The notes beneath the pieces were generated by a model. It saw nothing but the letters and a program-made list of their open reading frames with translations. It searched no databases and was not told the DNA's origin. Positions 21,088 to 57,101 of a stretch of 64,000 nt of DNA are shown here, one piece after another; within the stretch, counting starts at the first letter, position 1, and the number at the start of each line of letters is the position of its first letter. A program made the position numbers and the translations under genes. The DNA is from a virus, in IMG/VR virus record IMGVR_UViG_3300043571_000425. One strand, written 5' to 3'.

Positions 21088-21213
21088 ATAAAACAATCCC
21101 CTGTTGGACTCGGTGCTGATAACACCATCCGGTGAGGGGATTACATGATAATTGTAACACAATTTATAGGTATTTCAAACAGTTGTACTATGGTTTCGAT
21201 AAGCAACGTTAAA

Positions 21214-21284
21214 GCGAGTAGGTAGGATTTGAACCTCCGATCATGGGTTGGACACCCACAGCTTTACCACTCAGCTATACTCGC
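21214..21284 (-). tRNA. tRNA-like gene (anticodon loop UGUCCAA, possibly Gly-UCC), non-canonical
   Basis: Perfect 7-bp acceptor GCGAGTA/TACTCGC, D-loop AGTGGTA and T-loop TTCAAAT. Non-canonical features: G at position 33, one T-stem mismatch, and one extra nt before the acceptor 3' strand. Confidence 0.5.
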
Positions 21285-21287
21285 AAT

Positions 21288-22023
21288 CTAATTATATACT
21301 ATTTTCTCACCTTTATACATTGAGAAACCACGTTTTTTAATCTCATCAAACGGGATTATGGGAACTGTTAATTTTTCTCTATAAGTAGGATCTAAAAAAT
21401 AGATATATCTCATTTGGCAGCCGCTTAATAATTCTCCACCATGATCTTGTTGTAATTTCTTCAATGGTGTATTTGGGTTTCCATAGGTGTTTGTTACCCA
21501 ATGGCTAATTGCAGATGTTTTTGTTTGTACGGTAATTCTATGAACCGTATCCCCCCCCCCGCGAGAGGTGTCTTAACTTATCAGGCAATCGCCAAATCAT
21601 ATCAGACTTACTATTTATCCCAGTCAAAATAAATCCAGAAGCCCTATAAATAGTACCGTCTCCACACTGACAAGCATCAGAAAAGCTAAGAACCCATTTT
21701 AGATGCGGCGCGTGTTTTCTTAATAGTTTAAATGCAATTGATAACGCCCTGCTTTCACTATTTCTTGGCAGATTGTCACTAAATGCCATGCGGTTTAATT
21801 CAACAAAATCATTCCATTTTGTATCTTCAACTAACCCGATGACCTTGCTTTTGTCCAGTGGTGAACCGAACTGCATCGCACCTTCAAGACTACCATTGTA
21901 GAAAACACCAATATGTATCCGTGAGTTATTAACAACCTTCCCTGAGTAATGAAGTTTTTTAATAATAGCGTTAGCTTCCTGGCTGGTGATAGGTTTTAGA
22001 ATAATGTTTTTAGCTTTACCCAT
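21288..22023 (-). pseudogene. Mom-like / GNAT-fold DNA-modification protein interrupted at a G10 (C10 on +) homopolymer
   Basis: The track ORF 21538-22023 (HYSGK, LPRNSES motifs) stops just after the C10 run at 21551-21560. With 9 Gs the frame stays open for 89 more codons (..TVHRITVQ..GCQMRYIYFLDPTYREKL..) to a TAG at 21288-21290. Confidence 0.6.
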
Positions 22024-22663
22024 GACTCCCTACAAACATTTCACATATTCTCGCTAATGAATTGCCGTTTGAATTTTGATTCGGACTCTCATCAAATTCT
22101 CCCATCCCCTTCGCCACGCTAATAGCATCTTTCACGGTGGCAACCTGTTCCTCTGTTAACGTAAAATTCATACTTGATAACGTAGCGCGATCGCCAGACG
22201 GAATATCGCCAAGCGCGTCCCCCCATTCTGAATCATCGGGCTTTTCCTCATCCAAAAAACTCAACTCCAGTTCACTAAACCCAGTCAAGTCCAAATCAAA
22301 CCCTTCATCCTGCAAAAACTCAAAATCAATCTTTAACATTTCCGGGTCAAATCCGGTATTCATTGTCAACTTATTATGAGTCAACCGATAGGCGACTTTT
22401 TGGGCTTCAGTCAGTCCCGTTACCTGAATCACTGGAATAGTAGCATCGCCTCGCTTCTTAGCCGCTAAAAGCCGTCCGTGACCCTCTAGTAATTCCCCTT
22501 TCTCGTCAACTGCCACCGGATCTAAAAATGTAAATTCCTCAATGGAGTTTGCTATCTGGTCCACATGGGAATCAGGATGTAATTTGGCGTTGTGTTTATA
22601 CGCCATTAATCTGTCAATATCCCATTCCTCAATCTGACTACGCTTAATCGTCTGTTTGTTCAT
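22016..22663 (-). CDS. ParB-like nuclease domain protein
   Basis: 215 aa; KLHPDSHVDQIANSIEEFTFLDPVAVDEKGELLEGHGRLLAAKKRG, a ParB/Srx fold motif. Confidence 0.8.
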   Translation of the reverse strand: MNKQTIKRSQIEEWDIDRLMAYKHNAKLHPDSHVDQIANSIEEFTFLDPVAVDEKGELLEGHGRLLAAKKRGDATIPVIQVTGLTEAQKVAYRLTHNKLTMNTGFDPEMLKIDFEFLQDEGFDLDLTGFSELELSFLDEEKPDDSEWGDALGDIPSGDRATLSSMNFTLTEEQVATVKDAISVAKGMGEFDESPNQNSNGNSLARICEMFVGSHG

Positions 22664-23228
22664 TTGGTTTCTCGCTTGGATCTATTATTTCGTAACCTTC
22701 CCTAGATAGCTTGTCAGCAGCCGCATTAATGTCAATGAAGTATTTAATACCCCTCACCTCATTAATGGCATCTGTTGACCGTTTTAACGCCTGTGACCAT
22801 TGATTAACTTCCGCCGCGTTATGTTGAGCGATCGCCTTCTTCTTTTCCTCACCAACTAACTTTAAATCTTCAGCTAATTGTCGAGCTTTAACTTCAATAA
22901 TTTTAGCAACATAATCCCTCGCTAATTTGTGAACTTTGTAGTTTTCAATAACTATATCTGAGAGTTCATCTGATATTTTCTCAGATGTTTTTTCAATAGT
23001 CTTCTCCTGAATGGTCGTCTTGAGGGTGTCGCGGTACTGTCGCCTCTGATCTAGCCACAATTCTCGTTTTACCCAGCCCTCAACCGTCCCCTTTGACTGT
23101 CCAGATGCGTCCGCAAGTCCCCTAATTCCTATGTCATCATCAGCCTCAACATAGCGGCGGCGACATTGTTCTTTAGTCCAAGGGCGTGGTAATTTCTCCC
23201 ATCTCAATTTAGTAATTCCTATTAGCAA
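22644..23228 (-). CDS. possible terminase small subunit / HTH protein
   Basis: 194 aa; N-terminal HTH-like IRGLADASGQSKGTVEGWVKR followed by a coiled coil; assignment is weak. Confidence 0.35.
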   Translation of the reverse strand: MLIGITKLRWEKLPRPWTKEQCRRRYVEADDDIGIRGLADASGQSKGTVEGWVKRELWLDQRRQYRDTLKTTIQEKTIEKTSEKISDELSDIVIENYKVHKLARDYVAKIIEVKARQLAEDLKLVGEEKKKAIAQHNAAEVNQWSQALKRSTDAINEVRGIKYFIDINAAADKLSREGYEIIDPSEKPNEQTDD

Positions 23229-23287
23229 CTAACTCAATAATTGCACATTAATAAAAAATCGCCATCTTGTGACAGCGATCGCAATTA

Positions 23288-24424
23288 CTATTTTCCAGGT
23301 TTCGCCGTCGTAGATTTAACCGCCGTCGTCACAGAACAAGCCAATTGTGATTTTGACATCGCCACAGTCAACGCCTCTAACGCCGCTTCGCGTTCCACAG
23401 TAGCAGGGCATTTTTTAGCTATAAAATCTGCTAAATCAGCAAACTTTGCGGTCAGTTGCCATTGCTCAGTTAGTGCCATGTGCCGGGTAATCAATAGATT
23501 TATAGATTTATCAATAACATATTTTTTCCGCCATTTACAAGCGGTTGTGGAGTCTACGCCCAAAAATATCTCACACCACTGCAAAGATTTTCCAAGCTCA
23601 ATTGCTTCAATAACTTTTAGCTTTAATTCAATATCAAAACCGACAGGCGCGGTCGGCTTGGGATTGACCCTAAACCAATATTTACAATCTTTGCAAGAAT
23701 ACCTACCGCCACGCCTAACGGTGTTGTAACTCTGGCATTTAGGACATTTAACACGCCCGTCAGCAATGGCGCGTAACTTTTCCAATCCCTCTTTTTCAAT
23801 TTGGCGGATCTTCCTGGACCCCATGCCATGAAGTCTGGCAAGTTCCCCAATCGGTATTTTATTAATGTAAAGTCCGTTGATAATTGCGGCGTGTATTTCC
23901 GGCAACTGGTTTATCAATGGCGTGATTCTATCCAGTTCCTCCTGTTGTTCATCCGTCAAAGCCTCCGGTAATTCTGAATTATGCTGATTACACGCCGTTG
24001 CACATTCTTTAGCTAAGTCCAATGGAATATCAAGAGATAAAGCAGCTTGTTCATAGGTAACGCCGTGCTTTTGTGCATACCGTTTAATCTTTTGGTGAGT
24101 TTCTTGTAGTGTTCTAGGAACTTTGATCAGCCGCCCCTTGTCACGGATAAATTGCAAGATTGCACCATTAATAAATAGAACCGCAATACTTGATAATTTA
24201 CACTTCTTTTCAGGGTCAAATCTCTCAATTGCCCTAATTAATCCAGTTGCCCCAATTTGGACTAAATCATCATAGGGTAGGTCACAGCAGAAGGTCATTT
24301 TATGAGCAACTTTATGGACTAGTCCCATGTTGTTAATAACAATCTTGTTTCTAATTCTTATATCTTTAGTGGCGTGATAATTGATTAATAATTGAAGATT
24401 GTCTTCATAATTGGTATTTGACAT
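23288..24424 (-). CDS. sigma-70 family factor fused to a C-terminal zinc-ribbon + HTH module
   Basis: Region 2 PYDDLVQIGATGLIRAIERFDP; region 4 IGELARLHGMGSRKIRQIEKEGLEKLR; then CPKCQS..YSCKDCKYWF and an HTH (IS1 InsA-like). Confidence 0.85.
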   Translation of the reverse strand: MSNTNYEDNLQLLINYHATKDIRIRNKIVINNMGLVHKVAHKMTFCCDLPYDDLVQIGATGLIRAIERFDPEKKCKLSSIAVLFINGAILQFIRDKGRLIKVPRTLQETHQKIKRYAQKHGVTYEQAALSLDIPLDLAKECATACNQHNSELPEALTDEQQEELDRITPLINQLPEIHAAIINGLYINKIPIGELARLHGMGSRKIRQIEKEGLEKLRAIADGRVKCPKCQSYNTVRRGGRYSCKDCKYWFRVNPKPTAPVGFDIELKLKVIEAIELGKSLQWCEIFLGVDSTTACKWRKKYVIDKSINLLITRHMALTEQWQLTAKFADLADFIAKKCPATVEREAALEALTVAMSKSQLACSVTTAVKSTTAKPGK

Positions 24425-24477
24425 AAGTGATTGAAGTTGTGATAAAATTATCTGAATATCTATAATCTAATACAATC

Positions 24478-24651
24478 ATGGATGATTTAACGCAGAAACT
24501 TCAATCATTATTAGACGGATTTGGGAATAGAGGTAGTGGCAGAATTGAACGACGGAGCGACGGTTTTTATTATGTGAATAAAATCGTTGTCATGCACCTT
24601 GACCGCAACTATCACAACGCAGTTTCAATATTAAAGCAATTGTTTATTTAA
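24478..24651 (+). CDS. unannotated 57-aa ORF containing an RGSGR motif
   Basis: MDDLTQKLQSLLDGFGNRGSGRIERRSDGFYYVNKIVVMHLDRNYHNAVSILKQLFI; TATAAT at 24461-24466; below the track's length cutoff. Confidence 0.4.
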   Translation: MDDLTQKLQSLLDGFGNRGSGRIERRSDGFYYVNKIVVMHLDRNYHNAVSILKQLFI

Positions 24652-24660
24652 GAGTTAATC

Positions 24661-25272
24661 ATGATTTTAAACGATGCACAGATAACGGAATTGGCAGCTA
24701 GTGGGATGATCAACCCATTTCAGCCTCAATTAATTAGAGAGGTTAGTATCTGCGGTCATGAACTAATGGAGAATCAGATCAGGAAAGTGATTAGTTATGG
24801 GCTGTCGTCTTACGGTTACGATATCCGATTAAGCCCTAAAGAATTTAAAGTTTTTAAGCATATTCCGGGTACAATTGTTAACCCTAAGAACTTTAATTCT
24901 GGTAATTTAGAGTCAGTAGAATTACAGCGTGATCAATGGGGTGATTTTTTCATAATCCCCGCTCATTCTTACGGGCTGGGTGTGGCAATTGAAAGGTTAG
25001 AAATGCCGTCAGATTTAACAGCTATTTGTGTGGGAAAATCAACTTATGCGAGGGCTGGTTTAATAGCTAATTTAACACCTGTAGAAAGTTCGTGGCGAGG
25101 GAATTTAACTATCGAGATATCCAATTCATCAAGTGCAGATTGTCGAGTGTATGCGAATGAAGGTATTTGTCAACTGCTATTTTTCAAAGGTGAACCATGC
25201 GCTGTTTCTTATGAAGATAGGCATGGTAAATATCAAGATCAACCTGAGCAAATTGTACTAGCAAAAGTTTAA
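24661..25272 (+). CDS. dcd: dCTP deaminase
   Basis: 203 aa; SYGLSSYGYDIRL and a conserved C-terminal HGKYQDQ-type region. Confidence 0.9.
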   Translation: MILNDAQITELAASGMINPFQPQLIREVSICGHELMENQIRKVISYGLSSYGYDIRLSPKEFKVFKHIPGTIVNPKNFNSGNLESVELQRDQWGDFFIIPAHSYGLGVAIERLEMPSDLTAICVGKSTYARAGLIANLTPVESSWRGNLTIEISNSSSADCRVYANEGICQLLFFKGEPCAVSYEDRHGKYQDQPEQIVLAKV

Positions 25273-25273
25273 T

Positions 25274-25498
25274 ATGAATCACGATCATCCATCTCATTAC
25301 AACCAAGGCAATATAGAGTGTATTGACGCGATCGCCTCCGCACTTTCTCCCCAAGAATTAGACGGTTTTGTTCGCGGTAATGTAATGAAATATATATGGC
25401 GATCGCCTCACAAAAATAAAGTTGAGGACTTGAAAAAAGCCCTATGGTATTTGAGTTGGTATATATCTAGGTTGGAGAAAGATGATGCAACTAATTAA
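25274..25498 (+). CDS. DUF3310-family phage protein
   Basis: HYNQGNIECIDAI...GFVRGNVMKYIWRSPHKNKVEDLKKALWYL. Confidence 0.7.
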   Translation: MNHDHPSHYNQGNIECIDAIASALSPQELDGFVRGNVMKYIWRSPHKNKVEDLKKALWYLSWYISRLEKDDATN

Positions 25499-43742: not shown

Positions 43743-44700
43743 CTTGCAGGATGACTAATCCCTTCTGAGGGATTGAAACAAGTACAATTGATGGAAATAA
43801 AATATTAAGCATAGACTTGCAGGATGACTAATCCCTTCTGAGGGATTGAAACAATTTTGAGCTTGACATAATCATCGTTATGTCACTTGCAGGATGACTA
43901 ATCCCTTCTGAGGGATTGAAACGTCATGCTTATCAGATGAACTTCACCCAAATACGCTTGCAGGATGACTAATCCCTTCTGAGGGATTGAAACAACTTGC
44001 TCCTGCACTGCCTTGCAGGATGACTAATCCCCTTGCAGGATGACTAATCCCTTCTGAGGGATTGAAACAGGCGTGAGTTTGGCGTGACGTGGCGTAAATC
44101 TCTTGCAGGATGACTAATCCCTTCTGAGGGATTGAAACCTTAGATGTTAAGACTGTCAGAAAATATCAAGGTAGACTTGCAGGATGACTAATCCCTTCTG
44201 AGGGATTGAAACGTCGGTTCTTCATTAATTTGCTTGCAGGATGACTAATCCCTTCTGAGGGATTGAAACTACCGTTAAAGTGTTCATGAATCTTTTGGGG
44301 ATGACTTGCAGGATGACTAATCCCTTCTGAGGGATTGAAACAGTGTGTGCAGTCAAATACTTAGATATTCCATCTGGATTGCAACTTGCAGGATGACTAA
44401 TCCCTTCTGAGGGATTGAAACAACTTATGACCCTAACATTGCTTGCAGGATGACTAATCCCTTCTGAGGGATTGAAACCGACTGATAGCTGATTTTTCCA
44501 AATAAACGGAGTCCTTGCAGGATGACTAATCCCTTCTGAGGGATTGAAACTGTACTCTTTTGGCAATTGTGGTTAACATCTTCCTACGCTCCTTGCAGGA
44601 TGACTAATCCCTTCTGAGGGATTGAAACTTCTAATATCTGCGAGCGATATTTATTAAAACCATCTTGCAGGATGACTAATCCCTTCTGAGGGATTGAAAC
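43743..44700 (+). CRISPR. CRISPR array, 14 identical 37-nt repeats + 1 truncated repeat, 13 spacers
   Basis: Repeat CTTGCAGGATGACTAATCCCTTCTGAGGGATTGAAAC (7-bp hairpin AATCCCT/AGGGATT, 3' tag ATTGAAAC). Spacers are 33-43 nt, plus three short ones of 18, 20 and 20 nt. Confidence 0.97.
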
Positions 44701-44744
44701 GAGGCGTGGCAACTATAAGGAAAATCCCTTACCAGTTGCCAGTT

Positions 44745-47700
44745 ATGAATTTAGGCGAACTAATTGTTGACCTGTCACTCGACTATGCAGAATTTAACCA
44801 GTCATTAGAACAGGCGAAAAAAGCCGCATCTAGCGCCGCCGCAAGTATTGAGAAATCATTCCAGAAATTATCCCTATCCGTTGACATTGACGACAAGTCA
44901 CTAACGGATTTAAACCAGCACATCAACATATCCGTACAACACTTAAAGCAAGCTAATACCTTCTTTAGAAACAACCCGATTACAACTTACGTCAATGATG
45001 ACAGCCTCACGGACTTAAACGAACACCTCAACGTGAAAGTCCGTCATTTAAAAGAGGTTAACCATTTTTACGCCCAAAATCCTATCACCGTCCGCACCAA
45101 TACCGGACAACTCGATGAGCTAGAGGAACGACTAGACAGACTTGGTAACAGAAAGGTGACGATGGAAGTTGACACCATAGTTCTGAACCAATACCAGGAC
45201 AAAACCGCAGAAGTTGTGGAACAGGCTATTTCTAATGCCATCCGTCAAATGCAAGTTCCCCAATCTAGCGGACAATCGGCGCAACAATCACCACAATCTC
45301 AACAAAATAGAGTCCAGCGGGTTCAACTGGGATTAGACCCTTTGAGGTCAATTGGCGAGGGCGTTTTTGAAAATGTCGGGAAACAGTTGAGCAAAGGCGT
45401 TGGATCGTCAATGCAGGACTCATTGGGCGTGGATATGAAGTCTTTTACTCAAATAGCCTCTAACTCAGTTCTACGTTATTTTGGCGTTGGTAAAAAAGCG
45501 CAAAAAGACCCCAAAAACAATAAATCAAAAATCAAATCTATTGTTGAGGATGCAATTAAAGATTACTCTACGGCTGTTGACAAAGGGTCAGGATCTATCA
45601 GAGGTGAACTTGACGACGTTGATTTAAGTTCAGTTGATGCGATCGCAAGAAACAGTTTATTGAGATATTTTGGAGTAGGCAAAAAAGCACAATCAGACCC
45701 CAAAAATAACCAAGCTAAGATTAAATCTATAATTGAAGATGCTGTTAAACAATATTCAGGAACTGATGTAAAAAAAGAAAATTCCGGCGTTATATCAAAT
45801 ACATTCTCTGAAATAAATAAAGCATTTTCAGAAACAGTTAATAAAGGTGTTCAGGGAATAGCAGAACGAGCTAAACTCGCAACTATCAAGGAAGTTAGAA
45901 GGGCATCAACTAACGTTTTAGCCAACTCATCAAGTGGTGTTAGAGACAGCGTAAATGGTCTTTTTGACGCTGCCGAAAGTGGTAAAAAAGGGTCTGTCAG
46001 TCAATATATCGGGCGTGGTTTAGCATCACAATCCAGGAAGGCTGTGGAAGGAACTTTTAGCAATTTATTCCCTACAGTTGCACCGATAGTTAAAGAATTT
46101 TTAGCCACTGGGAACAAACCACCTGTAGAAAAACAAGCTCCTAAACAACGCCCAGCAGACGGATTATTAGAAGCGGCCAATCAACTCAAGGAAGCCGCGA
46201 AGGCAATCAGTGAATCAGCGATTAAAGTACAATCTGTAGCACCTGTTATTCATGAACAAATAGCAGATCCTTGGGGTAGTGCTGACTTAACGCCAGTTCA
46301 AATTCCACTGAAACCAGCGAAACAGAAAACCAAGAAACAAGAGCCTGAACCCGAATTAGTTTTACTAGAACTTCCACAACAAACACAACAGCATTTTAAG
46401 ACATTAAATGCAGAAGTAGGGAAGAATACCGCTAAATCTCTGGAGTTTTTAAAAGCAACTACACAGGAAAATATTAAGCAACAAACTACACAATCAATCG
46501 CTAATATTAAGGCTGCTTTAGCTGCTATTAATCAATATTTCAAAACAGAATACAAGCAGGTAAAAGACGCTGTAGATAATGCAAAATCTACAGGGCATAT
46601 TGACGATATTAACGCTGCTAGAAGTGCAGCTAAAAATTATCAGCGTAGATTATCTGGTGCGGTTAAAGAGATAGATAGAATTGTTAAATCTGGCGAGGAT
46701 GCTGGTTTTAGTAAAGAATTTGGATCTGAATTAAGTCAAGTACACGCAACTGGCAAAGGTCAACTTGTAGCTAGTGACAAGCGTGTTGGACAGCAATTAG
46801 GTGGATTAAACTTACTCGAAGCTAATCAGTTTAAGAAAGACGTAAAAACCTACACAGAACTAGCTAAAAAAGCGGGCATTGAGATTGACGCAGGATTAAT
46901 CAAAGGATTAGATATTGGTTCAGCGGGTGTAACGGCTGAAACACGCGACCTGCTAAACGGATTGATCGCCACTGTTAAGAAAACAATGGGTATTCAGTCG
47001 CCATCATGGGTAATGATGGGAATTGGTGCGATGATTGCGGCTGGTTTAGGACTAGGTATTAAAAACGGTGTCGTTGACGTTTCTAGTGCCGTTGGGCTGT
47101 TAACGGATGCTATTGGGGATGGATTAAAAGATATTCAGTCTATTCCATCAGAAGGAATTGAGGCATATAATCAGGCGTTAGAAAATGCAGTAAGCGACAA
47201 ATCGGAACTGACCAAGAAAGTATTTGAGGAAGCTAAGGGAGCAAGCAAAGCGACATTACCTGGAATGGTATTAGGTACAACCATGATGGGTGTTGCTAAC
47301 GCGGGTTTAGTCCCTAAATCAATTGAAACACCGTTAAGGCATTTAGGAGCATTTTATCAAGGGAAAGCAGGGGTTCATCAGATGAATCCGCAATTGGCTA
47401 GAGAGGCTGAAATTGCAACTATCTTTAATATGATGCAATTGGCTGAAAAAGGCGACGGGTATTTTCCTGATAGTGGTTTTGTGGGCATGGTTAAACACAA
47501 AACTTTGCCTACTTTAGCTCATACATTGGGAGGTTTTAACTACACACAAAACAAAGACAAGGGGTTGCAAATTAACGATGTTTACGACTGGCATCAAGAT
47601 ACTAATACAGACAAAAATACACCATTCAAACTACCTAAAAATTTAGGTAGTAAAATATATAAATTCCTGGAGTCAAAGAAATGGCTACAAGATTTATTAG

Positions 47701-50700
47701 GAGTTGAAGAGAATTTATTTGGTAATACCAAAGCATTTACTAAATACAATAAAAAAACAGGGCGTGAATTATTCTCAGTCCTTAACACTCAATCTGGGAA
47801 TGATTTTCAATTAGGGCATTCAGTCCATTCTGAATTAATTGGTGGTAATCCCTACATTCAAACGCACCGATTGGATGGGAAAGGGCTGGATGATTTAACA
47901 GACTTAGCAACAAACCCTTATATTGCATCTAAAGGCAATTTTGGGCAATTCTTGAATCACCCTAAAATTCAAGAATACGTTTTAGGCGGTAGTCAACAAA
48001 ATCAACAACCGTCTGGATTATTAGGACAATTATTACCAGCATTAAAGAAAGATTTAGGCAGCAATCCCATACTCACAAATCTATTCAGTAGTGCTACAAA
48101 AGCAATTGGTAAAGGTGGCAGTTTCAAAGATATTGGTACTAATCTAATAACGTCATTTGGGCAGGGTATTTTATCATCAGATGATGGTGTTTTTGGAATA
48201 CTTGGAACTTTTGCTAAGTCTGCAATTGGTTTAGTTAAAAAGATTTTTGGTATTGCATCACCATCTAAGATATTTCATTGGATAGGATTGATGCTTGGGC
48301 TAGGATTGGAAGAAGGTGCAATGTCTTCTTTGTCTAAGGCAAATCAAAAAATAACTGGTTCAGTAAAAGCTACGACAAATAACGCAAAAACAATAATTCA
48401 GGGGGATCATTCACTTGGATTAATTGGGAACATACCCCTAGGCGTTAAAAAAGAAGTTTCAATAGGCAATCAAGTACAGGGGGCTGACGGCACTGTGTCT
48501 GGTAGTGCTGGGTATGTAAAAAACGTTCCTTACACAATAAATGACTTACGGAATCACGTAGGAGATATACTATCTGCTAACAAAAATTACGGGACTTCGG
48601 TAGTACCAGGACTGAGTGGTATCTTGGAAAATAATTTATTTCCGACTTTTAGCAAGGCGTTTAAAACAATAAAGTCTTCTCCTGTTTATACTCAAAAAAA
48701 TCAACAAAAAAATCCTCAAGCTGTATATGCTGCAACACCAAATATTCACTCACAGCCTACGATACTAAACCACGCTCAACATGCATTTAACACATTATCA
48801 AGTATTCACTCACAGCCCACTAGGTTAAACGCACCTCAGCAATCACAAGCTACAGTTTTACAGCCTACCAATACAATTTTACAGCCCTTACAGTCAAATA
48901 CTCTAAGACAGGCTAATACAGTTTTACAGCCTACCAATACAATTTTACAGCCCTTACAGTCAAATACTCTAAGACAGGCTAATACAGTTTTACAGCCTAA
49001 TTGGATGTTCCACAATCCAACAAGTCCCCAAACCGTATCTGCTGCTATCCCCCTACAGCAAATTACGCAGCTAGGGACTGAATTAGGGAATAACGTAATT
49101 TCCGCAGTCGGGAACAGCATTAAACAGACAAGGGGGTTAAGCTATCCAACATTAGGGCAATATATGAGAAATGCCGTAGTTGCTGCGGGTTCTGCTATGT
49201 CAGGGTCACTTATGGGGATGTTAGGAGGGCATTTAAAAACCTTCTTCCCCATGATCATGAAAGTTGCTTTACCAATGGCAGGTGTAGCGGCGTTGAAACT
49301 TGGTGACGGCATTACAGGCAACTTACTGAAAAATGGAATATTCAAGCAAGGCGGATTTTTAACCGAATTACTCAGTGCTTTTAGTGGCATTAAACTGGGT
49401 TCTATGGGTGGTGCAGGTATTAAATCTGCGATTACCGGGATTACACAGTTTTTGGGCGTATTTCCGATGCTGTCACCATTGGCAAGAATTGGATCAATGG
49501 CTGCTAATGCGGGTGTAGTGGCTCACGATGTTTTTAGTGGTGGCAACGGGGGACGGAAATCAGTTAATACAGTTTTAGAAAACAAGACTACTGAAAACCT
49601 GAAAGAAGCGGGTTTAAACTCTACAGGAAATTCCACCGCAGATTTAGTAGAGAATTTGGCAGAAACTACCGTCGGTGCTTTGTTTAGGATGATTGGGTTC
49701 GATGGTGTAAAAGCATCCGCCGTACAAGCATTAATCAAGGGTAAAGTTAAGCAACATTCTGAACAAATCGCTAACGCCGTTGGTGGTGTTGGTAACGGTC
49801 AAATATCCGCATTGATAGATGGATACGTAAAAGGCGATTCTACCCAATTGGCGGGTACAGCGGAATCCATGCTCAAAAACATGGGTATCACCGGATTGGA
49901 CTCTAAGCAAATTAAGCTTGCTGCTAATGCAATTACGGCTACCCTATCAGGTCTTCATGCCAAATTCGGACAGGAAGGATTTGGACTTGGTGAGTCAATT
50001 AATAAGGGATTTAGAAAATCTTTAGCAAATCTAGCTAACGCCAAAGATGATCTAGAATACAACCTCAAAAAGGCTGTAGGAAAAGCCAGCGCAGGTGACG
50101 TAATCGGCAACATCTTCAAACGGATGTCACGCGGTTTCGTTGTTGACAAGGGGATGTTTGATGAAATGTGGAATCAGGTGGGAGCATCCTTTAAAAAAGG
50201 TGCTTTCAAAGGCATGAGTGGCAACGAACAAGAGGGAATGTTCGGGAATATGATGGGATTCATGGCATCCGCTACAGCTATGTTTGCGCCGATTACCGCA
50301 ATGGCTGCATCTCTAGCTCCTTTATTCCTCCCTCTAATGCCTATAATCGCGGGTATTGGCGGTGCTATCAGGATGGTAATGCCCCAATTGAGCAAGCTGT
50401 TTGAGGGTATGCAACGGGTAGAAACCTTGCAACGCCGATTCACCTTTTTGGGTGGCTCTAAAGCGGGCGGTATCGCCGAATTGAACTACGCCAAGGGTGT
50501 CGCCAATCAAATGAATGTTCCGTCAGAAGTTGCGGCCAACTCATATTCTCAGTTGGCAATTGCGTCCAAAGGAACAAAGATGGAGGGGCAAGGCGTAAAA
50601 GACTTGTTTGAAGGTATCACCGCTTCCCTAAGTGCTTTAGGCATCAGCGGTCAAGATGCCTCCCTGGTATTTATGGCATACACTCAGATCATGGCAAAAG

Positions 50701-53700
50701 GCAAGCTGTCAATGGAAGAATTGAGACAGCAGTTAGGCGAGAAATTCCCACCGGCAATGGGTGTATTTGCTAAAGCAATGGGTGTTTCTGTGGCAGAAAT
50801 GAATGATTTAGTCGCAAGCGGTTCTATTCTGTCACAGGATATTTTACCCAAGGTCGCCAAAGTCTTAAAGCTGGATTACGGTAAATCAGCTTCAGGTAGT
50901 GCCGACAGCCTAGTTTTGGCACTTACTAAACTTGGTAACGTAGGGTTTGAAATCACTTCAATATTTACTGATAAACTATCTGGAGCGCTTGCAGGGATTG
51001 TTAATTTTGCATCGAACGGACTGGGGTTTCTAAAAGATTCTCTAGGTACTTTGATCCCATTAGGGCAATCTTTTGTAATCGGTTTTACCGCAACGATAGC
51101 GGTAGGATTGACGGTCATGATGACAAAAATTAAGCCTGTAGTAGTGCTATTGGGAACTCTACAAAGCCTTGTATTATCAACCTTTTCAGCGATTGCATCC
51201 AATTTAATGCCAATGATCATAGGCATAACCTCAGACGTTGCAGACGGTTGGTTAGGGGCTGAAAGTGATTTGATGCAAAACATGACGCGCGGGTTCACCA
51301 ATATGTTTACCGGATTGTTTTCGGCAATTGATTCCGGTGTCCGTGCCATGTCAGGCAAACCACTATTTGCTGAAGGTTTAATCGGTGGTAAAGGTGTAAA
51401 TCTAATAGTCGCTGGTATAGATGCTATCAAGGGAGCGTTGGGTGCGGTGTTTTCGATTATTCCCCCTGGAGTCGTTGAACTTGGGGCGTTGGTGTTCATG
51501 CTTGAGCAAGCGATCGCTCTTGGAAGTATGGCACTTGGTCCGGCGTTAGTCGGTGGCGGAAAAGCATTATTGGGAATGGTAGTAGGCATCAAAAACGCTT
51601 TCATCGGAACAGTTGGGACGGTGAAGATTTGGGGTGAGTTAATGATGACCTCAATGAACGCTGGTGCAGTAGCTACAGAAAAAGCAGCGGCTAGAGCGAT
51701 GATTGCTAATCAAGGTTGGAAAATGAGTCTGATAGCACTCAGATCAATGGCTACTCACGTGGCTATTGCGATGGGTATCTTGATGTTTTCCAAAGGTGAT
51801 TTCAGCAATCCACTGGGTGACAAGATTGGCGAAACTAGCAAGAAAGTTACAGTAAATCTAAATAACATGAAATCGGCTGCTTTATCGCTGGGTGAGGCGT
51901 TTGATAAAGCCGCTGGACAGTTGGTGAACTTAAACAATAAATTGACGGATACCCTGCCATCTAAAGGCGTACAGCTTGATATTCGTAACTTCTGGGATAA
52001 GACGAAAAGCACTACTTCAGATGATTTGATTCGGAATAGTAACCGCGCAGAAGTTGAAAGACGACAACGCGAAAAAGACGGCAAGCAAACTTTTGGCGAT
52101 AAAGCCTTAAACGTTGCGGACAAAGCTCTAAAATACAGCGGGATTACAACACCAATGTATTTGTACAACTCTTGGTTAAGCGATCGCTTAGTCCCAAAAA
52201 CGGACGATGCAACGATTGATTTAGTCAAGAAATACGGACTAGAAAAATATATTGCCCCTGACAAAAACCTACGGGTTGATATGGCGCAATCCCAAGTAAT
52301 CAAGGCTTTGCAGGATTCAGAAGCTAACACCAAAGCATTAGCAAGCACCTATTCTAAATTAGGACTAACGAAACAGACTCAACAAAATTATTTAATCCCT
52401 GAAAAAATGGGTCCAGTCAGCAACACTTTTGATATTGACGCGCAGATTAAAGCCGCTAACGACAAAATAGCGCGGCTTAATGAATTAGATAAAAAATATA
52501 CTTTTTATCAAAGCAGTAGAGCTGATGGAAGAATCTCAAAAGAAGAGGATCTATCAGGTTTTAGTTTTGGCGGAAAAACAGCAAATCCAGAAAGAATAAT
52601 CAGGGGTGATTTGGATATTGAAAAAAACATTATCAGGGAACAAATAAAACAACTTGAAAACCAGCGTGCATCAACAGCCCAAGGTGTGGAACGGTTCAAA
52701 TCTAACAAAGAAATTCAACTGATTGACGCGCAGATTTTAGCTAGAGTTAAGCGTGGTGTACAACTTGAAAAAGCCAACCCTTCTGATGCTACAAGAAAGG
52801 AGCTTGGTGGAATTGATACCGCAGTCCTGGAACTCAAAACCAGACGGGAGAAAATCATCAATGGCATGGGTTCAGATGTCAAAGACGCAAAAGAAACCCT
52901 TGATATATTAGAACAGCACAAGAAAGACATCCTGGATGGTGCTGATGAAGCCACTAAATCATTTAACATCCAAATCCGGCGAGCGATCGCCAAAAACATA
53001 GATCAGCAAATTGAGCTTGCTAAAAATGCTTTTGACATTGCACAAAAATCCGTACCCGCGCAGTTTGGAGACGACCTGTACAAAAATGCAGCTAACAAGT
53101 TACGAGACACACAAATTGCATTTGATAGGACTTCCAGTGCTGATAAAATTGCATCTGCAACCTTCAGGGCATCGGTTAATAGTTCTTCTGAAAGATCCGC
53201 TAATGTAGCCCCTATTCTGGCGAATAGACAAGTTGCTGATTTAGAAAAACAGCAGAAAGAATTAGACAATTTAACATCTCGCAAAAAAGAAACTATTGAC
53301 GCTTATGCAGCTATTCTCAGATATGGTGCGAACAAAGATGTTAAAGATGAACTAGAAAAACTCAAAGCCGAAGTTTTAAAAGATGATGAAAGCTTGGCTC
53401 AACTACAAGATGATGTTGCTACAGCAAAGCGCGGTATCCGTCAAACTTTAGTGGATCAAACTAAGCAAGTAGCCGACTATTACCGCACCGCAGTTAGAGA
53501 AGCTCAAGCTGTTAGCATCGAGTTCCAAAAAGCCCAAAAGACCCTTGAGAACTCCAGAATGCAAAACAAACTGAGAGAGGCTTTAATAGGTGCTGGCGAT
53601 AACATCTACACTCAGTTTATTGAAGGAATTATTAATATAATTTCGCAAACAACTGAGATTGAAAAACAACAATTAGAAGCCAGGAAACAACGCATTGACT

Positions 53701-56700
53701 ATGAGAATAATATTGAGGATATCCGGTTACAAGCGGCAGAATTACAGCGCAGCTTACCAGGGAAGATAATTCCGCTAGATTCTAGCATGGCGGATAATTT
53801 TAATCTCAGTCTTGAGGAGATAAACGGCACGGTTAACACGATTAACAACAGTGTTAAAAATGTCGCAAATACCCTGTCGAATGACGTTGTAGATGCCGCT
53901 AAAAAAGCTAATACTGAACTGGATAAACTGAACCAAAGTATCAAAACCATTGACAATAGCAGCAATTCATGGATAGAAGGTTTTGGCAGTAAGTTTGCTG
54001 ATTTGACTAAATCACTTGAAAACGGTTTTGATGGTGTTGGAAATGCGATCGCTGATATGACACTAAAAACCTCTAGCTGGTTAGCGTCAATGGCTACCGG
54101 ACAAGGTTTGTTGCAGAATTTAGCAGGTGGCGTTAAATCGGTAGTTAGTGGCGTATTTGGACAACAAGCGGGACAGCAATTAGATCAGGGTGTTCAGCAG
54201 CTTGCTAGTAATCCGATTGGGGCTATCAATAACTTCTTGGGCGCAAAAAACAAAATTCTCTCCCCAATCCAAGGAACTACAGTAGAAGATTTACTTAGGT
54301 ACAAGCCGTCGTATCAGCAGGGCTTTTATGGAAGTAGAGACAAAGGTGCGAGACAACACAGCAAGGTGGATTTCGACTCACGCGCCAAAGCCGGACAAAA
54401 TGCTGAAATAATTGCCAGCCTACCGGGTACAGCTACAGCTAAAAAATGGACTGGCAATAGCGGCGGCGTGTTCATTAATAGTATTTTGCCATCAGGTCAA
54501 AAAATAACCCTGGAATACGGGCATCTGTCACTTGAGAGCATTAAAAAGACTTTTGGTGGACAGCTTGGCAAAAGTATTGAGGTTCAGGCGGGGCAAAAAC
54601 TAGGCAACGTGATTCATGATGCTTTATCATCTGGTCCACATTTAGATTTTGGGGTGAGACTGAATGGTAAATACATTGAACCTCAGAAATTCTTGCAAGA
54701 TTTCATGGGTGGTAAATATGGTGGGGTGGTAAGTGGAAAAACCATGCAACAGCGTCAACCAGTCCCCAAAGTCCCGCCCATTCCCGGTCTAGATCCACGC
54801 ATAGATACCAAATTCCTGCAAACTGTAGCTAATATAGCTCAAAGCGTAGGAGCGAAACCTGAAGACCTGCTCAAAACAATGCTGTATGAAACAGGTGGTA
54901 CACTTTCACCATCTGCCAGAAACAGCCGCACCAGTGCCACAGGCTTAATTCAGTTCATGCCAGCTACAGCTAGAGGGCTGGGAACGAATATCAACGCTTT
55001 AGCACAAATGAGTCCACAAGATCAATTAGTATTTGTTCAAAAATATTTGAAACAAAATAGTAGGGGGCAAAAACTGGACTCTTTTAGAAAAGTTTTGTCA
55101 ACTGTTTTTGCTGGTAATCCTAACGCTTCATTGGGAATAGGTGATGGGGACATTACCCTTGGTAATTACCTCAAAAAAGCAGAAAGCCGATATGGAAACA
55201 CAGCACGACAATTAACACAAATTGCTATGCAAGGCGGAGCAATAGACCCAAATTCAATGCAGCAAGCGGTAACTCAAGCGGGTAGACTCAAGTTAAATAC
55301 AGCAGCCCAGCAACTCCAAACCAACCAAATCAACAGCAATTTAACTCCTGAACAAATTAGAGAAAATGAACTGAGGCAAAGGTTAGAAGCTTACAGATTT
55401 ATTAGATCAACTCGAAAATCGGCATTGGGAGACATCAGCAGCACGAAAGATTCCACATTAGGAACGCAAAGAACCGTATTAGAGGGACTATCCCCTAATA
55501 TGAGCAATGCTGACAGATTTGGAATTCAGCTTGCCGATTTGCGCCGAAAAATAGAGAAGGATATGGAGGCACTACAGCAGATTATTGATGATACGGATGG
55601 AGCGATCGCACAAAAACCAGATTTACAGGCTGCTTTTAATTTGGCGATGAAGAAATTCCCCAATGATCCAAAGTTAGCGGCTGATGCAGTTAAAGCAAAT
55701 GATCTGACTTTCAAAGCGACAGCGTTCCGTAATGCAGAAGCCAAAAAGGATCTGGCTTTCTTGAAATCTAATGCTGACGACATACTCAAAGCGTCAATAG
55801 CAGATTTTGACAAAAAAGAATTTTTCAGATTAAGTGAACAGGATATAGCGCAACAAACGAAGGTTATTGAGCAACTACAACAACAGCTACAGTCAATACA
55901 AAAATTAGAAGAGATTGACCCGCTGAATCCGTTAGTTTTAAAGATTCCGTCACTCCAGAAAAATATTGACTTACTATCATTAAACCGTGACCAATACCAA
56001 CAATTGCTAGACCTCCAAAAACGGTATTACGAAGGTGGTGGTAAGGGTGGCAACATGAGCGAAGAGGCTTATCAGAAGGAATTTAAAGCCATCCTCAATG
56101 TTAATTCTGTCAAAAAAGAAGGCATTGATCTTAACTTCAATTATGCCAATACGGTTAAGAAGATTGAGCAGGCACAAGTTGAATTAGATACGTCAAGCAA
56201 AATGTTTGACCTTTTGAATCAGAATAAATTTGATCTCCGTTCCTCAAACATTGAAACGCTAAAAAGTGGAATGGCGAATGAATTTTATACTAATCGCCTA
56301 ACAAGAGATTTGGAGACAGAAAAGGAGATGGAACGCGCCCGGCGTGCCAAAGAACAATTAGCAATTGATGTCAATGAATATAATCTTAAATTCCCAGAAA
56401 ATGCTTTTAATGCAGATCAAATCAAGGAAATGACCGCCGCATTGGATGAATTGAATAAGAAAAAATTAGACGACATCACCAGATCGGCGAAAACTTTTGA
56501 TATGGCATTAAAGGAGATGTTCCAGGAGAATCTAATCAATGGATTGACATCTGGATTCACTGAGTTAATAAACGGCACTAAATCTTTTGGTGACGTGCTT
56601 AACGACTTAGCGAATAACATTTTAAATGGGGTGCTAAATATTGCTCTGAACTCATTACTTAAAGGTGCGTTCGGTGGAGGCGGGCTGTTTAACTTCAACA

Positions 56701-57101
56701 AAGGTGGTAAAGTCCCCAACTATGCCGACGGTGGAGTAATTGGGGCAATTGGTGATGCACTTCAAAGGGAGCGTCAAGCATCAGGAGTAAAACCAGTATT
56801 AGCGGCGTTGACTCCGGGTGAAAGGGTGCTAACGGTACGCCAGAACAAACGGTTTGAGGAATTGCAAATGGAACGGGTTCTCAATTACGCCGGAGGTGGC
56901 GTGGTTGGCGGTTCAGTTCCCAACATGAACTTTACCGCTCCCAGTCAATCATCAACCGTTAATGTCAATGTACCCGTCAATGTGAATGGGGGACAGGGTG
57001 ATACATCTGTTAATGTGCCACAACTACAAAACGCCGTCCGGTCTGCGGTATTGTCAGAAATTCAGAAACAGCAAAGGCCAGGTGGTGCGTTGAATAAGTA
57101 G
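44745..57101 (+). CDS. tape measure protein with M23-peptidase-like and SLT/lysozyme-like domains
   Basis: About 4,118 aa from the ATG at 44745 (the track's TTG at 44694 lies inside the last CRISPR repeat). Coiled-coil and Gly/Ala-rich TM-like segments. HSKVDFD...GPHLDFGVRLNGKYIEP at about 54300-54700; ETGGTLSP..SATGLIQFMPATARGLG at about 54815-55060. Confidence 0.85.
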   Translation: MNLGELIVDLSLDYAEFNQSLEQAKKAASSAAASIEKSFQKLSLSVDIDDKSLTDLNQHINISVQHLKQANTFFRNNPITTYVNDDSLTDLNEHLNVKVRHLKEVNHFYAQNPITVRTNTGQLDELEERLDRLGNRKVTMEVDTIVLNQYQDKTAEVVEQAISNAIRQMQVPQSSGQSAQQSPQSQQNRVQRVQLGLDPLRSIGEGVFENVGKQLSKGVGSSMQDSLGVDMKSFTQIASNSVLRYFGVGKKAQKDPKNNKSKIKSIVEDAIKDYSTAVDKGSGSIRGELDDVDLSSVDAIARNSLLRYFGVGKKAQSDPKNNQAKIKSIIEDAVKQYSGTDVKKENSGVISNTFSEINKAFSETVNKGVQGIAERAKLATIKEVRRASTNVLANSSSGVRDSVNGLFDAAESGKKGSVSQYIGRGLASQSRKAVEGTFSNLFPTVAPIVKEFLATGNKPPVEKQAPKQRPADGLLEAANQLKEAAKAISESAIKVQSVAPVIHEQIADPWGSADLTPVQIPLKPAKQKTKKQEPEPELVLLELPQQTQQHFKTLNAEVGKNTAKSLEFLKATTQENIKQQTTQSIANIKAALAAINQYFKTEYKQVKDAVDNAKSTGHIDDINAARSAAKNYQRRLSGAVKEIDRIVKSGEDAGFSKEFGSELSQVHATGKGQLVASDKRVGQQLGGLNLLEANQFKKDVKTYTELAKKAGIEIDAGLIKGLDIGSAGVTAETRDLLNGLIATVKKTMGIQSPSWVMMGIGAMIAAGLGLGIKNGVVDVSSAVGLLTDAIGDGLKDIQSIPSEGIEAYNQALENAVSDKSELTKKVFEEAKGASKATLPGMVLGTTMMGVANAGLVPKSIETPLRHLGAFYQGKAGVHQMNPQLAREAEIATIFNMMQLAEKGDGYFPDSGFVGMVKHKTLPTLAHTLGGFNYTQNKDKGLQINDVYDWHQDTNTDKNTPFKLPKNLGSKIYKFLESKKWLQDLLGVEENLFGNTKAFTKYNKKTGRELFSVLNTQSGNDFQLGHSVHSELIGGNPYIQTHRLDGKGLDDLTDLATNPYIASKGNFGQFLNHPKIQEYVLGGSQQNQQPSGLLGQLLPALKKDLGSNPILTNLFSSATKAIGKGGSFKDIGTNLITSFGQGILSSDDGVFGILGTFAKSAIGLVKKIFGIASPSKIFHWIGLMLGLGLEEGAMSSLSKANQKITGSVKATTNNAKTIIQGDHSLGLIGNIPLGVKKEVSIGNQVQGADGTVSGSAGYVKNVPYTINDLRNHVGDILSANKNYGTSVVPGLSGILENNLFPTFSKAFKTIKSSPVYTQKNQQKNPQAVYAATPNIHSQPTILNHAQHAFNTLSSIHSQPTRLNAPQQSQATVLQPTNTILQPLQSNTLRQANTVLQPTNTILQPLQSNTLRQANTVLQPNWMFHNPTSPQTVSAAIPLQQITQLGTELGNNVISAVGNSIKQTRGLSYPTLGQYMRNAVVAAGSAMSGSLMGMLGGHLKTFFPMIMKVALPMAGVAALKLGDGITGNLLKNGIFKQGGFLTELLSAFSGIKLGSMGGAGIKSAITGITQFLGVFPMLSPLARIGSMAANAGVVAHDVFSGGNGGRKSVNTVLENKTTENLKEAGLNSTGNSTADLVENLAETTVGALFRMIGFDGVKASAVQALIKGKVKQHSEQIANAVGGVGNGQISALIDGYVKGDSTQLAGTAESMLKNMGITGLDSKQIKLAANAITATLSGLHAKFGQEGFGLGESINKGFRKSLANLANAKDDLEYNLKKAVGKASAGDVIGNIFKRMSRGFVVDKGMFDEMWNQVGASFKKGAFKGMSGNEQEGMFGNMMGFMASATAMFAPITAMAASLAPLFLPLMPIIAGIGGAIRMVMPQLSKLFEGMQRVETLQRRFTFLGGSKAGGIAELNYAKGVANQMNVPSEVAANSYSQLAIASKGTKMEGQGVKDLFEGITASLSALGISGQDASLVFMAYTQIMAKGKLSMEELRQQLGEKFPPAMGVFAKAMGVSVAEMNDLVASGSILSQDILPKVAKVLKLDYGKSASGSADSLVLALTKLGNVGFEITSIFTDKLSGALAGIVNFASNGLGFLKDSLGTLIPLGQSFVIGFTATIAVGLTVMMTKIKPVVVLLGTLQSLVLSTFSAIASNLMPMIIGITSDVADGWLGAESDLMQNMTRGFTNMFTGLFSAIDSGVRAMSGKPLFAEGLIGGKGVNLIVAGIDAIKGALGAVFSIIPPGVVELGALVFMLEQAIALGSMALGPALVGGGKALLGMVVGIKNAFIGTVGTVKIWGELMMTSMNAGAVATEKAAARAMIANQGWKMSLIALRSMATHVAIAMGILMFSKGDFSNPLGDKIGETSKKVTVNLNNMKSAALSLGEAFDKAAGQLVNLNNKLTDTLPSKGVQLDIRNFWDKTKSTTSDDLIRNSNRAEVERRQREKDGKQTFGDKALNVADKALKYSGITTPMYLYNSWLSDRLVPKTDDATIDLVKKYGLEKYIAPDKNLRVDMAQSQVIKALQDSEANTKALASTYSKLGLTKQTQQNYLIPEKMGPVSNTFDIDAQIKAANDKIARLNELDKKYTFYQSSRADGRISKEEDLSGFSFGGKTANPERIIRGDLDIEKNIIREQIKQLENQRASTAQGVERFKSNKEIQLIDAQILARVKRGVQLEKANPSDATRKELGGIDTAVLELKTRREKIINGMGSDVKDAKETLDILEQHKKDILDGADEATKSFNIQIRRAIAKNIDQQIELAKNAFDIAQKSVPAQFGDDLYKNAANKLRDTQIAFDRTSSADKIASATFRASVNSSSERSANVAPILANRQVADLEKQQKELDNLTSRKKETIDAYAAILRYGANKDVKDELEKLKAEVLKDDESLAQLQDDVATAKRGIRQTLVDQTKQVADYYRTAVREAQAVSIEFQKAQKTLENSRMQNKLREALIGAGDNIYTQFIEGIINIISQTTEIEKQQLEARKQRIDYENNIEDIRLQAAELQRSLPGKIIPLDSSMADNFNLSLEEINGTVNTINNSVKNVANTLSNDVVDAAKKANTELDKLNQSIKTIDNSSNSWIEGFGSKFADLTKSLENGFDGVGNAIADMTLKTSSWLASMATGQGLLQNLAGGVKSVVSGVFGQQAGQQLDQGVQQLASNPIGAINNFLGAKNKILSPIQGTTVEDLLRYKPSYQQGFYGSRDKGARQHSKVDFDSRAKAGQNAEIIASLPGTATAKKWTGNSGGVFINSILPSGQKITLEYGHLSLESIKKTFGGQLGKSIEVQAGQKLGNVIHDALSSGPHLDFGVRLNGKYIEPQKFLQDFMGGKYGGVVSGKTMQQRQPVPKVPPIPGLDPRIDTKFLQTVANIAQSVGAKPEDLLKTMLYETGGTLSPSARNSRTSATGLIQFMPATARGLGTNINALAQMSPQDQLVFVQKYLKQNSRGQKLDSFRKVLSTVFAGNPNASLGIGDGDITLGNYLKKAESRYGNTARQLTQIAMQGGAIDPNSMQQAVTQAGRLKLNTAAQQLQTNQINSNLTPEQIRENELRQRLEAYRFIRSTRKSALGDISSTKDSTLGTQRTVLEGLSPNMSNADRFGIQLADLRRKIEKDMEALQQIIDDTDGAIAQKPDLQAAFNLAMKKFPNDPKLAADAVKANDLTFKATAFRNAEAKKDLAFLKSNADDILKASIADFDKKEFFRLSEQDIAQQTKVIEQLQQQLQSIQKLEEIDPLNPLVLKIPSLQKNIDLLSLNRDQYQQLLDLQKRYYEGGGKGGNMSEEAYQKEFKAILNVNSVKKEGIDLNFNYANTVKKIEQAQVELDTSSKMFDLLNQNKFDLRSSNIETLKSGMANEFYTNRLTRDLETEKEMERARRAKEQLAIDVNEYNLKFPENAFNADQIKEMTAALDELNKKKLDDITRSAKTFDMALKEMFQENLINGLTSGFTELINGTKSFGDVLNDLANNILNGVLNIALNSLLKGAFGGGGLFNFNKGGKVPNYADGGVIGAIGDALQRERQASGVKPVLAALTPGERVLTVRQNKRFEELQMERVLNYAGGGVVGGSVPNMNFTAPSQSSTVNVNVPVNVNGGQGDTSVNVPQLQNAVRSAVLSEIQKQQRPGGALNK

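Follow-up and report, generated by a model that had tools for sequence, protein, structure and literature searches.

A conserved small gene of a CL131-like cyanophage with a lineage-specific RGSGR pentapeptide

Background

The motif of PatS lies at the C-terminus of the peptide (PMC4649674, PMC7761841), and PatX is exported and then cleaved by the peptidase PatP, which releases HRGTGR (PMC12756182). ERGSGR and HRGTGR are the high-affinity hexapeptides (PMC4649674; PMC12756182). In the HetR-PatS6 crystal structure, ERGSGR is bound to the hood domain of HetR as an extended strand, with Glu254 and Asp256 holding its free amino terminus and Arg223 near its carboxyl terminus, and the amino terminus is credited with the higher affinity for HetR (PMC4649674). 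HetN, a putative ketoacyl reductase, contains an internal ERGSGR, and this motif is required for activity (PMC7761841). Here we describe a 57-amino-acid open reading frame (ORF) that encodes the pentapeptide RGSGR in viral DNA (IMG/VR record IMGVR_UViG_3300043571_000425), of which the whole stretch of 64,000 nucleotides analysed is called the window. The ORF occupies the gap between a divergent sigma-factor gene, which starts at position 24424, and the dCTP deaminase gene dcd, which starts at position 24661. The original prediction was that it could encode a PatS-like small inhibitory pre-peptide.

At the level of the protein family this prediction fails, as only one of 28 distinct homologous sequences has RGSGR. 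Because the pentapeptide occurs only in one lineage, the 57-amino-acid protein probably belongs to the ordinary early proteins of phages rather than to the PatS-type heterocyst inhibitors. Overall, we favour, with some reserve, the interpretation that the ORF is an early gene of the gp068 family of a CL131-like cyanophage and that its RGSGR is an incidental variant. A literature search found no paper that ties RGSGR, PatS or HetR to a phage gene, and the genome paper of phage CL131 makes no mention of PatS, RGSGR or heterocysts.

A conserved protein-coding gene of phages

The ORF lies at positions 24478-24651, and its originally reported 57-amino-acid translation is correct on re-reading of the sequence. 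The product has a computed mass of 6.6 kDa and is basic, with a computed isoelectric point of 9.3. A homologue has already been deposited as gp068 of Aphanizomenon phage vB_AphaS-CL131 (ATW59336.1, hypothetical protein), which is also 57 amino acids long and is 75% identical in a full-length alignment. The ORF had been called unannotated. It does fall under the 60-amino-acid cutoff of the ORF list, but gene callers report it, both as a Joint Genome Institute (JGI) "hypothetical protein" and as CL131 gp068. In a protein-level search, CL131 is the sole sequenced phage isolate with a homologue. Megablast of positions 23200-25400 against the phage collection gave no match, and the window is not a sequenced isolate.

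A large protein collection contains 15 clusters of homologues, 13 of which are exactly 57 amino acids long, while two have longer called starts (68 and 63 amino acids). Together, the protein clusters, cluster members and viral contigs provide 28 distinct family sequences, the window copy included. Their alignment has 26 invariant columns, all of which are present in the window copy. The conserved blocks of the family are QKLQSLLDGFG, IE, DGFYY and a C-terminal ILKQLFI, and RGSGR is not among them.

The reading frame is intact in all 28 distinct sequences, down to 56% identity, and none is disrupted. Pairwise ratios of nonsynonymous to synonymous substitution rates (dN/dS) against homologues are 0.03-0.24, far below 1, with dS often saturated, and the nearest relative without RGSGR differs by 16 synonymous and 6 nonsynonymous codons. 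The original prediction had proposed looking for conservation of the ORF in related phages and for disruption in close relatives. The former is seen in every relative found, and the pattern of substitutions indicates that the ORF is a genuine protein-coding gene under purifying selection. A noncoding RNA or leader was rejected, because the region matches no Rfam family and its substitution pattern is that of a coding sequence.

The gp068-like family is, in the collections searched, narrow and found only in phages. A profile search of 1.84 billion representative proteins returned one 50%-identity cluster only, plus spurious multi-stretch matches in long proteins. No homologue was found in 185,579 GTDB species genomes, and a prophage or host origin was rejected on this ground. 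The exact 57-amino-acid sequence of the window occurs in 62 blocks of the collection, from many lake metagenomes, and always resides between the sigma-factor gene and dcd. The phage is CL131-like, with Aphanizomenon or Dolichospermum as its probable hosts, and the cultured relative CL131 infects the heterocyst-former Aphanizomenon flos-aquae.

Origin of the RGSGR variant

Among the 28 distinct sequences, the pentamer at the RGSGR position is KNNGR in 12, RNNGR in seven, RNNGK in two, RGNAK in two, and RGNGK, PNNGR, KHNGK and RGSGR in one each, and the loop is deleted in the remaining sequence. RGSGR is confined to the lineage of the window, and 26 of the 27 other members conform to [RKP][NGH]N[GA][RK], the exception being the member with the deleted loop. 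The closest relatives that are free of RGSGR (86-89% identity) read RNNGR or RNNGK. Codons 19-20 are AAC AAT or AAC AAC (Asn-Asn) in relatives, versus GG[T/C] AGT in the window lineage. Gly19 is shared with the RGNAK and RGNGK relatives, which have no complete motif. Within the RGSGR lineage, the ORF is polymorphic at two synonymous sites only, one of which is GGT/GGC in codon 19, and the protein is monomorphic across many metagenomes.

These comparisons indicate that this RGSGR derives from an ancestral RNNGR loop through point mutations, and not from duplication or transfer. Gene conversion or micro-recombination from another RGSGR gene was considered and rejected; the best agreement is 17 of 21 nucleotides on the core, and the flanks are unrelated. 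The pentapeptide at 24529-24543 does use codons other than those of two further copies in the window, at 16769 and 16799, as had been observed in the original prediction. The conclusion drawn there, that different codons argue for selection on the peptide, is nevertheless invalid. Because the copy in the 57-amino-acid ORF arose by point mutation and not by copying, the codon differences are uninformative about peptide selection.

Predicted structure and database searches

An AlphaFold2 model that used the family alignment has a mean predicted local distance difference test score (pLDDT) of 72 and consists of a helix (residues 3-14), two strands (21-25 and 31-35) and a second helix (43-56). Arg18 to Ser20 are located in the connecting turn or coil, and Gly21 and Arg22 begin the first strand; residues 11-20 average a pLDDT of 75, and residues 21-30 one of 82. 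The motif is internal, being followed by 35 residues that include the invariant C-terminal ILKQLFI, and the residue before it is Asn17, not Glu or His. A buried internal copy of RGSGR would lack the contacts of the termini seen in HetR-PatS6. We found no hydrophobic or export leader in the protein: the highest Kyte-Doolittle mean over 15 residues is 0.51, and the N-terminus, MDDLTQKLQSLLDGFGN, is hydrophilic, with a mean of -0.43.

The window protein has no match in Pfam or PHROGs, and scans of Pfam and NCBIfam with all 15 family members produced no meaningful hit. Comparison of the family profile with PDB sequences also returned nothing meaningful, and a "DGFYY" hairpin similarity to FadD10 and UNC119-like proteins (E = 0.02-0.3) was treated as chance. 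A fold search of PDB produced no match with E < 0.5. The sole significant structural match in BFVD (E = 2e-5) is to the 57-amino-acid A0A2H4PAT1, which is 69% identical and is taken to be gp068. No reductase match to the 57-amino-acid protein was found in Pfam or NCBIfam, and there is no indication in these searches of homology to HetN.

Regulatory signals and genomic context

Features of the locus are listed in Table 1. A consensus scan pairs TTGTGA (24437-24442) with the TATAAT box at 24461-24466 that had been described previously, and the promoter-like element around the box shows conservation across lineages. The scan is not significant by itself, with 8 sites versus 5.4 +/- 2.7 in shuffles. 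The block GTGATAAAATT[A/G]TCTGAATAT[C/T]TATAATCTAAT is near-invariant in L014/L030, a lineage with a 79% identical ORF. It is mostly retained in L067 and partly so in L020, where it is still recognisable upstream of the 57-amino-acid gene even though the preceding gene differs and is co-directional. The end of TATAAT is 11 nucleotides from the ATG of the ORF, which would leave room for a very short 5' leader only, and the ORF has no recognisable Shine-Dalgarno sequence ahead of it.

Where the 57-amino-acid gene meets dcd, its stop codon overlaps with, or precedes, a purine-rich sequence that resembles a Shine-Dalgarno site, which suggests that the two genes are co-transcribed and translationally coupled. 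Comparable junctions in other lineages read TAG-GGGGAACT-ATG, TAG-GAGAATTT-ATG and TAG-GGGAAACT-ATG, and a scan found no terminator-like site between the 57-amino-acid gene and dcd. In the window lineage the two also share one reading frame, separated by TAA GAG TTA ATC, and read-through of the stop codon would yield a fusion protein. The shared frame is probably incidental, and it is not found in CL131, L017 or L018.

In five of eight lineage contexts (the window, CL131, L017, L018 and L020), dcd starts 6-9 nucleotides past the stop codon of the 57-amino-acid gene. Another gene follows in L014/L030 and in L067, and the dcd frame of L016 is broken after a few codons. This L016 frame (about 3176 onward) opens with MILNDA and then diverges, having been disrupted or replaced. 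A sigma-factor gene is found within 300 bp of the 57-amino-acid gene in four of the eight contexts. The dcd genes of Cr-LKS4 and Dfl-JY23 are 61-65% identical to that of the window and have no 57-amino-acid homologue upstream. The protein is therefore not an obligate subunit of the deaminase, an idea that was rejected because these related cyanophage dcd genes occur without it and because three lineages that bear gp068 are without an intact downstream dcd.

Genomic context is the most informative evidence on the family, and it suggests the following model. The 57-amino-acid gene would be the first cistron of an operon transcribed by host RNA polymerase, the others being dcd, a DUF3310 gene and thyX. 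Its transcript would have a short leader, and its translation would be coupled to that of dcd. The product would be a folded, cytoplasmic and basic protein with a role within infected cells, as a small accessory factor or binding factor in the module for early nucleotide supply and transcription, perhaps acting through a conserved face of its two predicted helices. RGSGR would represent a conservative change of two residues (Asn19 to Gly, Asn20 to Ser) in a basic-Asn-Asn-Gly-basic turn, with a coincidental match to the PatS pentapeptide, and would not be the reason for the existence of the gene.

Table 1. Positions of the 57-amino-acid gene, its signals and associated genes in the window
Feature	Position	Strand	Basis or remark
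290-amino-acid protein with two RGSGR copies	16166..17038	+	HRGSGR 16769-16783, ERGSGR 16799-16813
Phage sigma-70-family factor, 378 amino acids, C-terminal zinc-ribbon-like extension	23288..24424	-	Pfam Sigma70_r2, Sigma70_r4; PHROG 351
Sigma-70-type promoter-like element, TTGTGA / 18-nucleotide spacer / TATAAT	24437..24466	+	Consensus scan
57-amino-acid gene, CL131 gp068 homologue	24478..24651	+	ATG to TAA; homologues, dN/dS, AlphaFold2 model
RGSGR codons AGA GGT AGT GGC AGA, residues 18-22	24529..24543	+	Lineage-specific variant of basic-N-N-G-basic turn
Junction TAA-GAGTTAATC-ATG, 57-amino-acid gene to dcd	24649..24663	+	Sequence; compared across lineages
Phage dCTP deaminase, 203 amino acids, no intein	24661..25272	+	Pfam DCD 1.9e-23; PHROG 1663 3.2e-55

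The deaminase of the window and the extein parts of CL131 gp069 share 83% identity. In the sigma factor, regions 2 and 4 are followed by a weak zinc-ribbon-like match (residues 224-249) and then by ~130 residues without a family match, and L067 has a 232-amino-acid version of the factor that lacks the C-terminal extension. A Mom-like gene (PF25680) and a ParB_N-like gene reside upstream of the sigma-factor gene (21538-22663, minus strand) and match genes in L002 and L003. Other contigs with the identical 57-amino-acid gene have DNA methylase genes (PF00145 or PF01555) at the position of the Mom-like and ParB_N-like genes. The region is mosaic. The module of sigma-factor gene, 57-amino-acid gene and dcd is ~98% identical in nucleotide sequence between the window and contigs whose 290-amino-acid protein is only 52-61% identical, and in alignments of 21097-25273 with L032 and L026, blocks of 83-99% identity alternate with unalignable stretches. 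By far the largest ORF in the window is a single one of 4135 amino acids (44694-57101, plus strand).

Other RGSGR proteins of these phages

Sequences conforming to RG[ST]GR occur just three times in all six frames of the window, twice in the 290-amino-acid ORF and once in the 57-amino-acid ORF. The 290-amino-acid ORF uses the codons AGG GGG TCG GGT CGC at 16769 and CGC GGC AGT GGT CGC at 16799, and its two hexapeptides match the PatX-type (HRGSGR) and PatS/HetN-type (ERGSGR) contexts (PMC12756182; PMC4649674). Of 69 homologues of this protein, 54 contain RG[ST]GR, and in most of these it takes the form (D)ERGSGR with Ile, Leu, Val or Met as the next residue. An alignment of 30 motif-bearing members (39-90% identity) shows an invariant R-G-S-G-R, whereas the stretch around it varies. 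Two copies are found in the window protein and in P0016 (HRGSGR and ERGSGR in each), and P0048 also has two. In AlphaFold2 predictions, both copies in the window protein (residues 202-216) fall in a linker (pLDDT 33-39) that connects a helical N-terminal part with a beta-rich C-terminal domain. The protein has no Pfam or PHROG match.

A relative of the N-terminal part of the 290-amino-acid protein is CL131 gp103 (L025 2501-2938; MG209611.1 87056-87493), which is 145 amino acids long and ends in ...LVCDERGSGRDKIPQFVAV. CDERGSGR is also the last eight residues of PatS of Anabaena PCC 7120. If phages mimic the heterocyst-inhibitor signal, the 290-amino-acid family is the strongest candidate for such mimicry.

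RGSGR also occurs in a more remote clade of these phages, where a 66-amino-acid ribbon-helix-helix-like ORF ends ...MIKKHRGSGR-stop (L059 513-713, L060 586-792 and L061 407-607). In sister genomes (L056 3386-3763 and L062 4864-5241), the same RGSGR segment forms the N-terminus, MKVQDMIKNHRGSGR, of the adjacent 125-amino-acid ORF, and L054 and L063 have HRGSSR at this segment. The sequences indicate that one RGSGR-coding segment moved between the neighbouring 66- and 125-amino-acid genes.

Alternative interpretations

An alternative that we consider unlikely, though deserving of attention, is that RGSGR in the 57-amino-acid protein is a convergent gain, in which selection turned a surface turn into an internal HetR-binding RGSGR comparable to the internal ERGSGR of HetN. 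In that event, which we doubt, the protein might be a second phage source of the host heterocyst-inhibitor signal beside the 290-amino-acid protein. It is conceivable, again at a low probability, that the intact protein or a proteolytic product attaches to the hood domain of HetR and stops infected cells from committing to heterocyst formation. Much of the support for such a gain weighs equally against an incidental variant, beginning with the expected frequency of the motif. By composition, RGSGR is expected about 0.011 times in the 18,434 amino acids of window ORFs of at least 100 amino acids, and about 0.10 times in six frames of shuffled window sequence, so that a third copy is improbable by chance. 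As a control set, ORFs of at least 50 amino acids from about 770 kb of related phage loci were clustered into 763 families, and for every possible ordering of R, R, G, G and S (30 in all), the families containing it were counted. RGSGR is in four of the 763 clusters, and the other 29 orderings together are in one. The four were corrected to three independent origins, as the adjacent 66- and 125-amino-acid ORFs share one homologous segment, and two of the three independent carriers were the basis on which the related loci were collected. The motif is over-represented in these phages even outside the 290-amino-acid family; therefore, a lineage-specific gain of function retains some probability, and chance is not a comfortable explanation for the third copy. 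Moreover, Ser20 is unique at a position where every one of the 26 other sequences with a loop has Asn, the sole polymorphism inside the motif (GGT/GGC in codon 19) is synonymous in a protein that does not vary across many metagenomes, and the variant is widely sampled, in the 62 collection blocks. A gain of function would also fit with the invariant (D)ERGSGR in the disordered linker of the 290-amino-acid protein in the same phages, with CL131 gp103, which ends ...CDERGSGRDKIPQFVAV, and with the heterocyst-forming host of the cultured relative. On these grounds one might speculate that CL131-like cyanophages repeatedly put RGSGR on unrelated proteins (the 290-amino-acid family, the ribbon-helix-helix/125-amino-acid junction and the 57-amino-acid protein), and that the 57-amino-acid copy is a recent convergent functional gain, an abundant early protein that binds HetR and helps to lock infected cells out of heterocyst differentiation; we judge this scenario, too, to be rather unlikely. 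The variant is of one lineage and one origin, and the finding was picked for its motif. Few substitutions in a turn are milder than Asn to Gly or Asn to Ser, and Gly19 is found as well in the RGNAK and RGNGK relatives. The residue before the motif is Asn, and not the Glu or His of ERGSGR and HRGTGR (PMC4649674; PMC12756182). Unlike the 290-amino-acid copies in their disordered linker, the motif is predicted to be in an ordered region, with Gly21 and Arg22 in a strand. It also has no free termini, whereas both termini in the published complex are near oppositely charged HetR residues (PMC4649674).

The interpretation as an early gp068-family gene with an incidental RGSGR has further points against it: its linkage to dcd is not universal (L014/L030 and L067 are without a downstream dcd, and that of L016 is disrupted), cyanophages with dcd 61-65% identical carry no 57-amino-acid homologue, and no fold or family match supplies a biochemical activity. 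Another proposal, which we find improbable, is that the family is a small, degenerate HicA-like RNA-binding protein, resembling a double-stranded RNA-binding domain, that has lost the catalytic histidine and would modulate the mRNA or translation of adjacent early genes. It would likewise place, improbably in our view, the RGSGR of the window where HicA has its G-S-x-H loop; in a manual alignment, this loop position corresponds to Asn-Gly-Arg in the family and Ser-Gly-Arg in the window. The two families (HicA is PF07927) are of similar size, E. coli HicA having 58 amino acids, and the predicted order of helix, strand, strand and helix is compatible with the topology of HicA. The family shares its C-terminal ILKQL with E. 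coli HicA (sequence confirmed against PDB 6HPB), and hhalign pairs IVVMH...ILKQLF with VMPRH...ILKQLG. In hhalign, however, the probability is 5.9% with the E. coli sequence alone and 10.7% with an alignment of 27 HicA sequences, and neither value is significant. There are weak fold matches to 1WHZ in PDB and to a "HicA-like antitoxin" in BFVD, but Foldseek E-values are 2.2 and 0.23 and template modelling (TM) scores are 0.34-0.40. We take 1WHZ to be HicA-like, although PDB names it only as hypothetical. No family member matches Pfam HicA_toxin (PF07927) even at E = 10, no toxin family was matched in PHROGs (window protein) or NCBIfam (family), H23, invariant among the aligned HicA sequences, is matched by no residue of the family, and no HicB-like partner gene is evident adjacent. 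As sequence, profile and fold comparisons all fall short of significance and the catalytic histidine is missing, the HicA-like idea is unsupported and is a weak lead only. A reading in which the ORF is not translated at all, so that the region is a promoter or leader for dcd with a fortuitous open frame, is hardly tenable. It is compatible with the shortness of the ORF, the want of a Shine-Dalgarno sequence and a TATAAT box only 11 nucleotides before the ATG, but the frame of ~57 codons is intact in 28 distinct homologues down to 56% identity, there is a large synonymous excess (dN/dS 0.03-0.24), the gene is kept where dcd is absent, and there is no Rfam match. The substitution pattern effectively refutes it.

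Implications

By itself, the 57-amino-acid ORF is one more conserved small phage gene, with a homologue already deposited as CL131 gp068. What is new is the RGSGR-bearing variant of this small-protein family. A match to the RGSGR motif is thus insufficient to call a gene PatS-like, and the phage-borne RGSGR signal proper would reside in the 290-amino-acid family. If the 57-amino-acid copy did bind HetR, it would be a case of viral mimicry of a bacterial developmental signal caught in the act on a second scaffold. The natural pair of RGSGR and RNNGR proteins would then bear on whether cyanophages manipulate heterocyst patterning in bloom-forming Aphanizomenon and Dolichospermum.

Comparison with known systems

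The closest counterpart is CL131 gp068, a protein of the same length that is 75% identical and is encoded, like the window copy, directly upstream of a phage dCTP deaminase gene. However, gp068 reads RNNGR where the window reads RGSGR, and its upstream neighbour is a co-directional hypothetical gene rather than a divergent sigma-factor gene. In addition, the deaminase of CL131 (555 amino acids; L001 4183-5850) contains an HNH-containing intein, whereas that of the window is intein-free.

The 290-amino-acid family resembles the 57-amino-acid protein in that RGSGR is followed by Ile, Leu, Val or Met and in being encoded in the same early region; in L020-type genomes, a gene of this family is only ~1.5 kb upstream of the 57-amino-acid gene. 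The two families are unrelated in sequence, and the motif of the larger one is invariant, lies in a predicted disordered linker and usually follows Asp-Glu as in PatS.

With PatS and PatX, the window protein has in common a small ORF with the exact pentapeptide RGSGR, in a phage group that infects heterocyst-forming hosts. It differs in that its motif is internal, follows Asn and is absent from homologues, and in that the protein has no leader and is predicted to fold. A pre-peptide family of this type would be expected to conserve the pentapeptide above all else, whereas the gp068 family conserves the rest and not the pentapeptide.

HetN has no sequence or fold relation to the 57-amino-acid protein, and its motif is required for activity, whereas that of the window is lineage-specific. 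Nonetheless, both have the motif internal to a folded protein, and HetN would be the better functional analogy if the window copy were active.

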